A stretch of DNA of 64,000 nucleotides, taken from positions 38,380,001 through 38,444,000 of the forward strand of contig NW_024704742.1 in NCBI RefSeq assembly GCF_018977255.1, in the 5' to 3' direction. The position numbers and the translations under genes were made by a program. Shown here piece after piece: positions 33,480-41,488 of the stretch; within the stretch, counting starts at the first letter, position 1; each line of letters begins with the position of its first letter. The notes beneath the pieces are model-generated. The model was not told the origin of the DNA, made no database searches, and saw only the letters and a list, made by a program, of their open reading frames with translations. Source of the stretch: Callorhinchus milii. Lineage: Eukaryota.

Positions 33480-34140
33480 AGGTGAGTGAAACCCGCCCAA
33501 AACCCGCCCCAAACTGGGGGCCAAGTTGAGTGCCACGTGGGATGGGGCGGGGGGGGGGCGGGGCGAGAGTGTAGGCGTCAATCACCGGGTCGGGGGCCCC
33601 GCCCCCCGCGGCACGTCATATGCAGGTCGCGCAGGCGCGGACCGGCCTCTTTGATGGCGGTCGCTGGTGAGGGAAGGAGATCGCCGACCGACCGCTGACA
33701 GCCATCCGCCTCCATCCGCCTCCATCCGTGCCCTCCGCCGAGCCGCGCCGCCGCCATGACCGAGCAGATGACCCTCCGGGGCACCCTCAAGGGCCACAAG
33801 GGTTGGGTGACCCAGATCGCCACCACGCCGCAGTTTCCCGACATGATCTTGTCGGCGTCGCGAGGTACGGGAGGGAGGGAGGGCCCGGGGTGGGGGAGGT
33901 GTAGGCCGCACAGCCCGCTCTGCTGCTGGGACCCGAGGGAGGGAGAGGCCGCGGGGCGCTTGGCGGAGACTTGGCCCCGCTCGGGTCTCGAGGCCGGGCA
34001 CACGGGCACACGGGCCCGGGAACGGGAGGGAGGGGGGGATGGGGGGGGTGTCCGCGTGGCGGCCCCGGGGTCACGGCGGGAGGGCGGACTCGACACGAGG
34101 CGGGGAGGCCGCCGCGCCCTTTTCACAGCAGCTCCCACTG
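33480..34140 (+). promoter_or_regulatory. CpG-island promoter of the RACK1-like gene with ribosomal-protein-type TCT initiator
   Basis: GC boxes (CCCGCCC/GGGCGGG), E-box CACGTG 33534-33539, NRF1-like GCGCAGGCGC ~33629, TCT motif CCTCTTT 33646-33652 followed directly by YY1-like GATGGCGG. Confidence 0.8.
33756..33864 (+). CDS. RACK1: RACK1-like exon 1
   Basis: Kozak gccgcc[17 protein letters not shown]...SASR; donor gtacgg. Confidence 0.96.
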
Positions 34141-37100
34141 GCTCACTCGCTGAATATTTAAAATCTCTTTTATTTATGTGTATATATATATATATATATA
34201 TATTAGTACTTTCAAGAAGTCTCCACTAATATCGACCCTCTCCCTCTCCCCCTCTCCCCCCATTACATTTTCTCGGCGTATTCTTTGTCTTAATTGTCTC
34301 TTAAATGGCCCTCTCATTGACCGCTCTCAAAAGCCATCCAGGAAAATCTTTCCATGCTCTTGAATACCTCTGGAGGGGGGGGAAGTTCTTCTGAATCTTT
34401 CCCTTTTTCCGCCCCTTGTCGTAATCTTCAGTCCCCTGTCGGTAGGAAGAGTTTTGCACAATTCAGTTCAATCTTTCAAGCCTTCCATCTTGAGCGCCTC
34501 GATCGTGATCGCCTTCGAGCTCTGCTCCCAACGGAAATGGACCACACTGTTCTGGTGAATAGTTGGTTTAACGTCAAGGCCATTTACGTGTCCAGATCGT
34601 GGCTGAAATTCTCACCTCGTTGAATCAAGGTTGTGGGTTCAAACCCCACATTCGATCGAGCCGTGGAAGCACATAGTCTAAATTTTATTACTTATTCAAA
34701 TCACTAAGTATCGAATGGTCTGGATAAGCAATGTTCTGGCATACTGAAATGGGGCTTCACAGGGAAGAATTGCAAGCGTGTGAATCTTGACCCACAACAT
34801 GTGGCACAGATCTATATTTCAATTACATTTTCATCCTTTTCTATAAGTGCAAATAATGTGGAAAGGGGCTATAGTTCTTTGTAAGTAAAGTTTAAATCGA
34901 GTTTGAGGGCTGAGCCTCTGCTTACATGGCTTCCCTTATACATCAGGTTAATTACATTGTATTTTACAGACAAATCCATTATCATGTGGAAACTGACGAG
35001 GGATGAGACAAACTATGGTGTCGCCCAGCGTTCGCTGCATGGTCACTCTCATTTTGTCAGTGATGTGGTCATCTCTTCTGATGGGCAGTTTGCCCTGTCT
35101 GGGTCATGGGATGCCACCTTGAGGTTGTGGGATCTGTCACTGTAAGTAAGTTAGGGATATTTAACTTTTTAAAAAGTAGTTAGGTATATATATTATATAT
35201 ATACACACAGGCTGACTTCTGTATAACAACCTCTAGTTATTACAATCTCTCCAGTTATAGCGACTCTGACATTCAGATCCCTTTTTTCCTATTGTTTCTT
35301 ACCCTAAAACAGCGATCGTTGAACCATATAACGATCTGCAATCAAGTCAGAATAGCAGGGTGTTCAGCAGTCAATCACATGGGTGTCCAGGGTTGGGCTG
35401 GGGGAAGATACAAGCACCGAACTCTTGAGAACACGGGACGGCTGCTAGCACAGCCCCTTCCCCTCACCCCATATACCTGCTCCTCTTCCCCTTCAGTAGA
35501 TAACTGCTCATCATGTGTAACGTTCTATAGTGAACACCTGGAAGGAACGGCCTTTTTCCCATATCTTTGTTCGTTATACCCAGGTCGGCCTGTATAAACA
35601 CACAGAGTGTAGTGAGGGTTTCTGGTAAACCTTGCCCCACCAAGTGTGAACATTTATTTTAAATCTTCCTGCTTGGTGACTCGATTTAAATTTAGATTTT
35701 TTTGTACGACCTTAAGATTCATTATATCCAAAGGCAATTAGTTAATGGTTTCTCCAGCTGACCCTATGAGTTCTAATATTTTTTTTCTGATAAAGGCCAG
35801 TGAATATCTCAATTTATTCAAGTAATGTTGCTAACTGCTTAGTATCCACCCTGAAATCTTATTTCCAGCAGCTCTGTAATGTCAGTTTTATTATTATTAA
35901 TAATAATAATCCTTGCATTTGATATAGCGCTTTTCACGTCGGGAGGATGTCCCAAAGCGCTTCACAGAACACACTGTAAAGTGAATTGACTGTATATTTG
36001 TGGGCAAACGCGGCAGCCAATTGCACACAGCAATGTCCCACAAACGGTCGTAGATTGAAAATGACCAATCTATTATTGTTTTTGGTTTTGGAGGGATTAT
36101 TATTAGGCTCTGTGTGGAGTAAGGAAACTTGCCCAAGGTTTCGCCCTCTGCCTGGAATTGAACTCAGGTCTCTCGCTTGCAAAGCGAGTGCTCTAACCAC
36201 TGAGCTACAGGACTCCACTATTACTAAGGCAAGCTTTGGGGGATTCTAGTTCTTGTGAAAGCCACTATGCTTCTTTAAAAATGTAGATCATTGTATGGAA
36301 GTGTTGCCATGCTTGGCCATTATTGCTGCATTAGGTTCATGGGGTACTCTTGGGAGGGGGACATAGTTATAACTGACTCTGCTTTAGGGAGGTCACAAAT
36401 TTCCCTCCTTGGTCCAAGGGCCCTGAATCCTGTTGTGCTCCACGGGCTGAGAATCAGGCCTGCAATCTTCTTGGTGGCTCAGTGCAGAACCCAGTTGCAG
36501 GTTCTCTTCTATCGAGCGTGCAGGCCCTTACTGAACTGCAGTGGTACTTGGGATAAAATGGCCCGTGTACTGTAATAATGGACACTTTGTGAAGAACTAG
36601 ATATGGTAGAACCACATATGGTAGAAAGCAAAGCACTATGAGTTTGAGAATGGGATAGTGGTACGCGTATGAATTATTCTTATTGCGTAACATACTTTTG
36701 GTGCTATTAGACAAATTTTGCACTTGAGATTAGTGAAACAAATGTCATATCTATGGTAAAAATATTGATTAATATTCTATAATAAAAATGCTGATGGAAG
36801 AGTCTTTCTTTCCCAATTTTCTTTTCATAAACAGGGGTACCAGCACCCGTCGTTTTTATGGCCACGGCAAAGATGTTCTGAGTGTTGCCTTCTCTGCAGA
36901 TAATCGTCAGATTGTTTCAGGCTCACGTGACAGGACCATCAAGCTATGGAACACTCTTGGGGTGTGCAAATATACCATTCAGGTATGTTCAAAACATCCC
37001 ATGGTAGCATGTCAATTGTTTTTAACAAAGGGCTTTCTGCCTGTGAATTGACTTCTTATAGATTTATCTAGTCTTAAATTAACAGCAGTTAAACCCAAGC

Positions 37101-41404: not shown

Positions 41405-41470
41405 AGTGAAAAATGTTATACTAGAGAACTGTTGGAAATCTCACAATTTGGGACTTCCTGAAAGCAAACA

Positions 41471-41488
41471 AATAAACTTACAAATAAA
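41471..41488 (+). terminator. Tandem polyadenylation signals of the RACK1-like gene
   Basis: AATAAA at 41471 and 41483, ~70-80 nt after the stop, followed by a T-rich downstream region. Confidence 0.7.

Follow-up and report, generated by a model that had tools for sequence, protein, structure and literature searches.

In a window of 64 kb from the genome of Callorhinchus milii (C1:38380001-38444000 of a 991.5-Mb assembly; "the window" denotes this whole stretch of DNA), an intact RACK1-like gene was found between LIN54 and SEC31A, with small nucleolar RNAs (snoRNAs) in its introns. The gene occupies 33756-41405 of the plus strand, comprises eight exons and encodes 320 amino acids in an open frame ending in TAA. 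Its pieces were taken from stop-to-stop open reading frames and the raw sequence, with the exon boundaries placed by a script; AG and GT bounds were observed at every exon, and each intron runs from GT to AG. Coding starts at the ATG at 33756 in exon 1 (33756-33864, 109 coding nt) and continues through exon 2 (34970-35141, 172 nt), exon 3 (36835-36982, 148 nt), exon 4 (37320-37415, 96 nt), exon 5 (38236-38346, 111 nt), exon 6 (39150-39290, 141 nt), exon 7 (40657-40767, 111 nt) and the coding part of exon 8 (41330-41405), with the stop codon at 41403-41405. LIN54, the RACK1-like gene and SEC31A share one strand. An earlier reading made from the letters of the DNA (hereafter the sequence-only reading) had described a complete 8-exon RACK1-like gene on the strand of LIN54 and SEC31A, and the boundaries, the open frame and the flanking exons agree with it. 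The WD repeats and the R36-D37-K38 stretch, the patch by which RACK1 contacts the head of the 40S subunit, are kept in the window protein, which is predicted to be a RACK1-like scaffold of the 40S ribosome and to bind ribosomes.

When the genome was searched with exon 2, only two places were found, exon 2 itself and C13:1054964-1055128, with 89% identity. The second place belongs to a RACK1 gene at C13:1050126-1056473 on the minus strand, which has all eight exons with introns and encodes 317 amino acids (40 kb of C13 was examined). The coding lengths of exons 1-7 are equal in the window and C13 genes, and we take human RACK1 to have the same set of coding exon sizes. The two proteins are identical at 284 of 317 residues (89.6%). 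Identity to RACK1 of Pongo and Falco amounts to 96.5% for the C13 protein and to about 90% for the window protein, and the C13 gene was therefore taken as the canonical gene and the window gene as a divergent paralogue. The latter shares the eight-exon layout of canonical vertebrate RACK1 (GNB2L1), with about 90% protein identity, but differs from it in its position at LIN54-SEC31A, in its faster evolution and in a C-terminus longer by three residues. No intronless copy of exon 2 was found in the genome search, both matches lying inside intron-containing genes. A retrocopy origin of the window gene was rejected on the presence of introns and the equality of exon lengths with the genome's own C13 gene, as the sequence-only reading had maintained from the canonical RACK1 exon sizes. 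Two intron-containing RACK1 loci, as it had expected, are thus present in the genome (C1 in the window, and C13), and the translocation of a single gene was not borne out.

Transcription of the window gene was examined in Logan contigs from four runs, X4, X6 (study P2), X5 (study P1) and X9. Exon 1 was joined to exon 2 (skip 33864/34970) in contigs of two of the four runs (X6 and X5), exon 2 to exon 3 (35141/36835) and exon 3 to exon 4 (36982/37320) in three (X4, X6 and X5), exon 4 to exon 5 (37415/38236) in one (X6), exon 5 to exon 6 (38346/39150) in two (X6 and X5), and exon 7 to exon 8 (40767/41330) in one (X4). These skips match predicted introns 1, 2, 3, 4, 5 and 7, with GT..AG ends and no differing letters in the listed pieces. 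An 884-nt contig of X6 joins exons 1-6 and begins at 33631, and a contig spans 39148-39271 of the exon 6 region. Because the genome is without an intronless copy, the joined contigs, which come from both study P1 and study P2, were read as spliced RNA; their origin from a processed DNA retrocopy was rejected, exon 2 occurring only at the two intron-containing loci. We infer that the window gene is transcribed and correctly spliced, contigs of three of the four runs joining its exons across six of the seven predicted introns. A 236-aa UniRef entry (P0132), labelled Callorhinchus milii, shows no difference from the window protein in exons 1-5 and 8; in this isoform, exon 5 is joined directly to exon 8, and 84 residues (exons 6-7) are removed in frame. 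No exon 5-exon 8 joint was present among the contig joints listed. The best match of the isoform was to RACK1 chains of solved ribosomes (PDB; E ~1e-143), and a scan of P0132 and P0124 with NCBIfam, a prokaryotic library, returned 0 families.

Upstream of the start codon, a putative 5' untranslated region (33646-33755, plus strand) was read from the sequence; it includes a run of pyrimidines (CCTCTTT, at 33646) and an ATG ahead of the start codon. This ATG, at 33653 just past the pyrimidine run, opens a 14-codon upstream reading frame (33653-33697). The sequence-only reading had assigned a TCT promoter to the gene; CCTCTTT is indeed present at 33646, but the spliced contig already begins at 33631, and the promoter is left unconfirmed because contigs cannot show transcription starts. 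At the other end, the 3' untranslated region (41406-41501, plus strand) contains AATAAA at 41472 and 41484, and a contig stops at 41501, followed by adapter-like letters.

The introns were searched for box C/D snoRNAs by a scan of our own, followed by pairing to the genome's own ribosomal RNA (rRNA) repeat (28S and 5.8S). Intron 4 contains a box C/D snoRNA of 77 nt, element B (37795-37871, plus strand), with a 6-bp stem (ATGTCC/GGACAT) and four boxes, C ATGATTA (37802-37808), D' ATGA (37832-37835), C' GTGATTA (37842-37848) and D ATGA (37862-37865). Its guide (37819-37830) forms 12 Watson-Crick pairs with positions 1876-1887 of the own 28S, which places U1879 at N+5 from D'. On both strands of the 64 kb, element B was the only site with [AG]TGATTA...ATGA and a stem of at least 5 bp, and this strict variant-box criterion gave a mean of 0.15 sites per strand in 100 shuffles, compared with the one found. 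No SNORD143-type guide word was detected in the window outside 37820-37830. The element is covered by low-depth intronic contigs only.

In human, SNORD143 and SNORD144 (ZL5 and ZL6) have been assigned to 28S Um2402, and both are reported to lie in intron 3 of the SEC31A pre-mRNA. The supplement of Jorjani et al. 2016 places them on the minus strand of hg19 chr4 (83817006-83817081 and 83819293-83819378), with SEC31A as the host and 28S-2402 as the target, and its general feature format (GFF) file gives the SNORD143 boxes as ATGATTA, ATGA, GTGATTA and ATGA. When element B was compared by eye with the printed human SNORD143, the two agreed over their first 16 nt, which contain the stem half ATGTCC, over the guide TGCTGTTCACAT and over their last 10 nt (ATGAGGACAT); 16 of 17 nt were identical from D' through C', the two spacers alone differed, and the lengths were 77 and 76 nt. 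The 3' half of element B also resembles SNORD144. Judged by this agreement in sequence, element B is plainly the orthologue of human SNORD143/144, as had been proposed for 37795-37871 together with the location of the human snoRNAs at SEC31A. The human and Callorhinchus milii elements are alike in terminal stem, four variant boxes, guide, length, target U and place relative to SEC31A, whereas human has two copies, in a SEC31A 5' intron and with no RACK1 gene known in the interval, and Callorhinchus milii has one copy, in intron 4 of a coding RACK1 paralogue. In human, LIN54 is assumed to lie upstream of SEC31A.

THAP9-AS1, which the sequence-only reading had put forward as a host, presumably overlaps SNORD143/144. 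The portions of the THAP9-AS1 publications at hand locate it at 4q21.22 beside SEC31A and THAP9 and leave snoRNAs unmentioned there, and the host named in the publications on SNORD143/144 is SEC31A, not THAP9-AS1.

A second snoRNA, the SNORD95-type element D, lies in intron 6 (39385-39463, plus strand; C box GTGATGA 39391-39397, D box CTGA 39453-39456). Both boxes are perfect. Its 11-nt D guide pairs with the own 28S at 2277-2287, which puts A2280 five positions upstream of the D box, and its last 18 nt (D guide and D box) are identical to the printed human SNORD95, whose host is GNB2L1 and whose targets are 28S-2802 and 28S-2811 (Jorjani et al. 2016). Element D would act like SNORD95 for the A2802 site, its score for the Rfam model lying below the gathering level. 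The D' guide region of element D (39398-39425) is displaced and matches the human 28S C2811 guide only in part; methylation of C2811 may perhaps be unguided from this element.

Intron 3 contains a box C/D candidate, element A (37151-37238, plus strand), with C box ATGATTA (37157-37163), D box ATGA (37228-37231) and a terminal stem of 4 bp only. Its D guide TGTCCTGCAA pairs with 5.8S, which makes it SNORD96-type by guide, and a 10-nt guide is the same as that of human SNORD96A (host GNB2L1, target 5.8S-75; Jorjani et al. 2016). The boxes differ: human SNORD96A has canonical boxes, whereas element A carries the guide for the same 5.8S site in an AUGAUUA/AUGA snoRNA, and by its boxes it would belong with the SNORD143/144-like family. 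In intron 7, a box C/D-like element, element C (40866-40947, plus strand), has ATGATTA at 40872-40878 and ATGA at 40937-40940; pairing against the genome's own rRNA gave no convincing guide for it. The intronic snoRNAs claimed by the sequence-only reading were accordingly recovered in part, as a SNORD143/144-type element at 37795-37871 and a SNORD95-type guide; the SNORD96-type was recovered by guide only, neither its boxes nor Rfam agreeing.

The 28S targets U1879 and A2280 are 401 nt apart, and human 2402 and 2802 are 400 nt apart. Because of the identical guides and this spacing, U1879 was equated with human U2402, and the predicted targets would correspond to human Um2402 (U1879), Am2802 (A2280) and Gm75 (the 5.8S G). 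The introns of the window gene are thus predicted to yield guides for 28S U1879, 28S A2280 and the 5.8S G, processing and activity included. Canonical RACK1 hosts SNORD95 and SNORD96A; the window gene, too, would guide the sites of both and carries in addition the SNORD143/144 orthologue. By BLAST, elements B and D each occur once in the genome, so that this species appears to draw its SNORD143- and SNORD95-type guides from the paralogue alone. Three guide-plus-box patterns (15-16 nt, 1 mismatch) were also tried; they gave 1255-1331 genome matches against 259-618 for reversed controls and were discarded as unusable for counting.

The canonical gene has a related element. In intron 7 of this gene lies a box C/D snoRNA (C13:1050495-1050560, minus strand) whose boxes are ATGATTA/ATGA, whose stem has 7 bp and which carries a SNORD96-type D guide, GTCCTGCAAAT, for 5.8S; upstream of D', the sequence ATTCACATAAT resembles, in degenerate form, the 28S guide of element B. 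A dual-guide ancestor may have left this snoRNA as a relic. No SNORD95-, SNORD96- or SNORD143-type guide word was found in the C13 gene elsewhere than in this element, and Rfam in E-value mode reported no snoRNA family over 20 kb of the canonical locus. Unlike the window gene, the canonical RACK1 of Callorhinchus milii is therefore without a SNORD95-type snoRNA. Window element C aligns with the C13 snoRNA of the same intron and is homologous to it, which argues that the variant-box family was present in a RACK1 intron before the duplication. In the variant, the G at C-box position 6 is replaced by U and the C at D-box position 1 by A; as we read the kink-turn (k-turn), these two positions pair with each other, so that the change would be compensatory and a Watson-Crick pair would be kept. 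The AUGAUUA/AUGA boxes thus resemble a conserved form of the k-turn in which one change compensates the other.

Our favoured reading, to which we assign a probability of about 0.75, is that the window gene is a functional second RACK1 and snoRNA host that arose by duplication of an ancient block, and that the lineage to mammals lost its coding part and retained SNORD143/144. The mammalian SNORD143/144 locus would most likely be the remnant of a RACK1-like gene, its host transcript being taken to descend from that gene. It could also be supposed that the snoRNA moved: in bony vertebrates, a RACK1 intron would have supplied SNORD143/144 to the SEC31A 5' intron through retroposition or duplication, the fate of the paralogue being a separate matter and the mammalian host owing nothing to the window gene. 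The AUGAUUA/AUGA family in intron 7 of canonical RACK1 offers an available source, and its members in introns 3, 4 and 7 of the two RACK1 genes show local movement or duplication. A chance landing in the very interval that holds a RACK1 paralogue is improbable, however, and the window copy and human SNORD143 match even in stem and spacer letters, whereas the canonical-gene copy has diverged; we consider such a move unlikely.

The favoured reading of a functional second RACK1 was further examined through the divergence of the two genes. By the method of Nei and Gojobori, the proportion of synonymous differences (pS) between the window and C13 genes was 0.748, which is saturated, while the nonsynonymous distance (dN) was 0.070; 84 of 129 shared four-fold sites differed. 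Saturated pS together with low dN indicates a very old split and strong purifying selection. The two proteins differ at 33 positions, with about 26 changes on the window gene's own branch; at these positions canonical bony-vertebrate proteins mostly show the C13 state, and invertebrate-like residues are retained in the window protein at positions 93, 146, 180 and 279. A relic kept solely as a snoRNA host, whose frame is slowly decaying without protein use, might also change faster than the canonical gene, as these 33 differences and roughly 26 own-branch changes attest, and the absence of other SNORD143- and SNORD95-type snoRNAs in the genome by BLAST and the database isoform that skips exons 6-7 are in keeping with such a history. 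Against it stand 320 open codons with all splice sites intact, a dN of 0.07 at saturated synonymous sites, the kept R36-D37-K38 stretch and WD repeats, and an orthologous 317-aa shark protein that is intact too. A gene preserved for its introns only is, in our judgement, highly improbable.

The proposed block duplication was examined through genes linked to the two RACK1 copies, with one further gene family per block. A genome search with Pfam CBFNT, the N-terminal domain of hnRNP A/B-D type proteins, gave one match, at C13:1021279-1021503, 29 kb from canonical RACK1. The best genome matches of one RRM exon of this C13 hnRNP gene, after itself, were C1:38608965 (81%), C1:38643069 (83%) and C7:15010450 (84%), those on C1 lying on the plus strand, 165-200 kb beyond the window. 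A SEC31 paralogue of the window SEC31A was found at C7:7728235. On C13 as on C1, RACK1 is linked to hnRNP A/B-D type genes, and on C1 as on C7, SEC31 is linked to hnRNP genes, which indicates paralogous blocks. We presume a human parallel, with RACK1 and HNRNPAB at 5q35, SEC31A, HNRNPD and HNRNPDL at 4q21, and SEC31B at 10q24. The pattern is that of a block or whole-genome duplicate, and timing at a whole-genome duplication would fit it. The ohnologue claim of the sequence-only reading was thus upheld as to saturated synonymous sites, linked hnRNP A/B-type paralogues and shark grouping; the free trees put the duplication node between the separation from invertebrates and the radiation of jawed vertebrates, and the alternative is not rejected by the approximately unbiased (AU) tests described below.

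Phylogenetic analysis was performed with IQ-TREE on rows sampled without lamprey or hagfish. The window protein fell outside a clade of all sampled canonical jawed-vertebrate RACK1 proteins, the C13 protein included, with support for the canonical clade of 96/89 (9 rows), 96/95 (11 rows) and 83/93 (10 rows, named outgroups). An intact 317-aa "RACK1-like" protein of the shark Heptranchias perlo, located inside a teleost cluster of the database, pairs with the window protein (90/68), and the two have seven states in common versus the canonical consensus. RACK1-like proteins were found in these two cartilaginous fishes. In a protein search with exon 2, none of the best 120 of 3389 matches was more than 89% identical, and no self match appeared; close matches were missing because the collection is clustered at 90% identity, which hides both the isoform and the shark protein. 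A search with the Heptranchias RACK1-like protein likewise gave no cluster representative more than 91% identical. These protein trees favour, in a suggestive manner, a duplication before the split of cartilaginous and bony fishes; taken alone they are suggestive and not decisive, because the AU tests reject neither alternative.

A number of results weigh against the reading of an ancient second RACK1. With the named outgroups, for which the canonical clade had 83/93, both RACK1-like rows were left unresolved. A topology that places the window gene together with the genome's own canonical gene was not rejected by the AU test (p 0.262), nor was one that unites both RACK1-like proteins and the genome's canonical protein in one clade (p 0.173, p 0.117). 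The two RACK1-like branches exceed the canonical ones in length about threefold, and because of this length the basal RACK1-like position could be an attraction artefact. Among the blocks, no third RACK1 copy was found on C7 by the exon 2 genome search, CBFNT gave no match on C1, and the C1 hnRNP genes were detected via a single RRM exon. As to the contigs, the run type RNA is a guess, no run being on record as RNA; the intron 6 joint was not found among the joints listed, and run X9 contributed no exon joints to them. As to the snoRNAs, Rfam at gathering level reported no snoRNA in the whole window, just six tRNA-like matches. In E-value mode, SNORD95 (RF00189) matched 39385-39460 with 25 bits and E 0.046, below its gathering score of 55, and SNORD96 (RF00055) gave no match at E up to 10, the boxes of the corresponding element being the non-canonical ATGATTA/ATGA; a match at 37796-37870 was at chance level only.

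The AU values of 0.173 and 0.117 allow for a different origin, specific to cartilaginous fishes, in which a segmental copy of RACK1, complete with introns and snoRNAs, was inserted between LIN54 and SEC31A in an early chondrichthyan and the mammalian SNORD143/144 had a separate history. The finding of RACK1-like proteins in Callorhinchus milii and Heptranchias only is what such an origin would give. It would, however, need an independent arrival of snoRNAs at the same SEC31A 5' interval in human; moreover, the hnRNP A/B-type paralogues linked to both copies fit a block rather than a single-gene duplicate, the free trees unite the canonical genes to the exclusion of the RACK1-like pair, and the synonymous sites are saturated. 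We regard this origin as improbable. The phylogenetic expectation of the sequence-only reading held insofar as the window gene groups with the shark RACK1-like protein outside the canonical clade, a chondrichthyan-specific duplication not being rejected by the AU tests.

Under the favoured reading of an ancient block duplication, the following course of events is proposed. An ancestral RACK1 would have carried SNORD95-type and variant-box snoRNAs and would have been duplicated within a block, most likely in an early vertebrate whole-genome duplication, the hnRNP A/B-D and SEC31A/B pairs stemming from the same event. One copy would have become the slowly evolving canonical RACK1, located on C13 near the hnRNP A/B-type gene, whereas the protein of the LIN54-SEC31A copy would have changed at about three times that rate, under continued strong purifying selection. 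In cartilaginous fishes both copies would persist, most of the snoRNA cargo being borne by the one at LIN54-SEC31A. On the way to mammals, the canonical copy would have kept or regained SNORD95 and SNORD96A, while the LIN54-SEC31A copy would have lost its coding capacity; the SNORD143-type snoRNA would have remained, been duplicated and come to lie in the SEC31A 5' intron. More tentatively, and with the odds rather against all three holding together, an early RACK1 may have had a dual-guide snoRNA with a compensated k-turn for 28S Um2402 and 5.8S Gm75, its cargo may have been partitioned between the copies in a lineage-specific manner, and the promoter and first exons of the dead tetrapod paralogue may have become both THAP9-AS1 and the long 5' end of SEC31A, cartilaginous fishes still placing the second, faster-evolving RACK1 in a subset of ribosomes.

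RACK1 is treated as a core ribosomal scaffold with a single gene outside plants, as is stated in PMC2577656 for the gene number. The plant RACK1A, RACK1B and RACK1C genes likewise represent more than one RACK1 per genome, through independent duplications. Long non-coding RNAs of mammals that are fossils of lost coding genes (Hezroni et al. 2017, PMC5577775) have the same proposed history with synteny kept, but here the survivor would be an intronic snoRNA whose host is now a neighbouring coding gene. In the main text of that paper, THAP9, SEC31A, RACK1 and LIN54 have 0 occurrences, and in four supplementary files THAP9 and SEC31A have 0. In our literature search, no description was found of a vertebrate RACK1 paralogue or of a RACK1-paralogue origin of SNORD143/144. 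The gene is already in public protein sets under automatic names, and the kinds of event proposed, the retention or loss of ohnologues and the turning of a coding gene into a snoRNA host, are known already.

An ancient, intact and expressed second RACK1 in cartilaginous fishes would be a candidate for ribosome heterogeneity. If the favoured reading is true, SNORD143/144 are the survivors of a lost RACK1 paralogue, riding in SEC31A, which would account for the presence of rRNA-modification guides at the 5' end of a gene for the COPII coat; 28S Um2402 is reported to be altered in ZEB1-induced epithelial-mesenchymal transition (PMC11773364). The locus would be an example of the reciprocal partitioning of intronic snoRNAs between ohnologues, and the transition from coding gene to host is made testable via the LIN54-SEC31A interval across vertebrates.

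The flanking genes and repeats of the window were also inspected. Upstream, LIN54 exons on the plus strand lie at 16050-16325, 16650-16820 and 20912-21115, comprising two CXC domains and the next exon; downstream, SEC31A has its start exon at about 58951 and further coding exons at 62197-62349 and 62715-62981, also on the plus strand. A GC-rich stretch at 46000-47500 (the bin of 46-48 kb has a GC content of 0.59) precedes the SEC31A start exon by 11-13 kb and probably represents the promoter of SEC31A with a first non-coding exon. The six tRNA-like Rfam matches, at 36148-36210 (minus), 38751-38813 (plus), 41574-41643 (plus), 31489-31560 (plus), 44282-44352 (minus) and 14863-14935 (plus), are copies of a tRNA-derived short interspersed nuclear element (SINE). 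The SINE copies of introns 2 and 5 have opposite orientations and lie inside longer repeats at about 35.9-36.2 kb and 38.7-39.1 kb, which draw contigs to a very high depth and also chimeric joints. The stretches 1-4300, 41700-43100 and 55800-57800 hold, on both strands, long open frames that contain recurring peptide motifs (...LHWLPI...RI.FKIL...) and look like decayed copies of retrotransposons of the long interspersed nuclear element (LINE) type that flank the genes.

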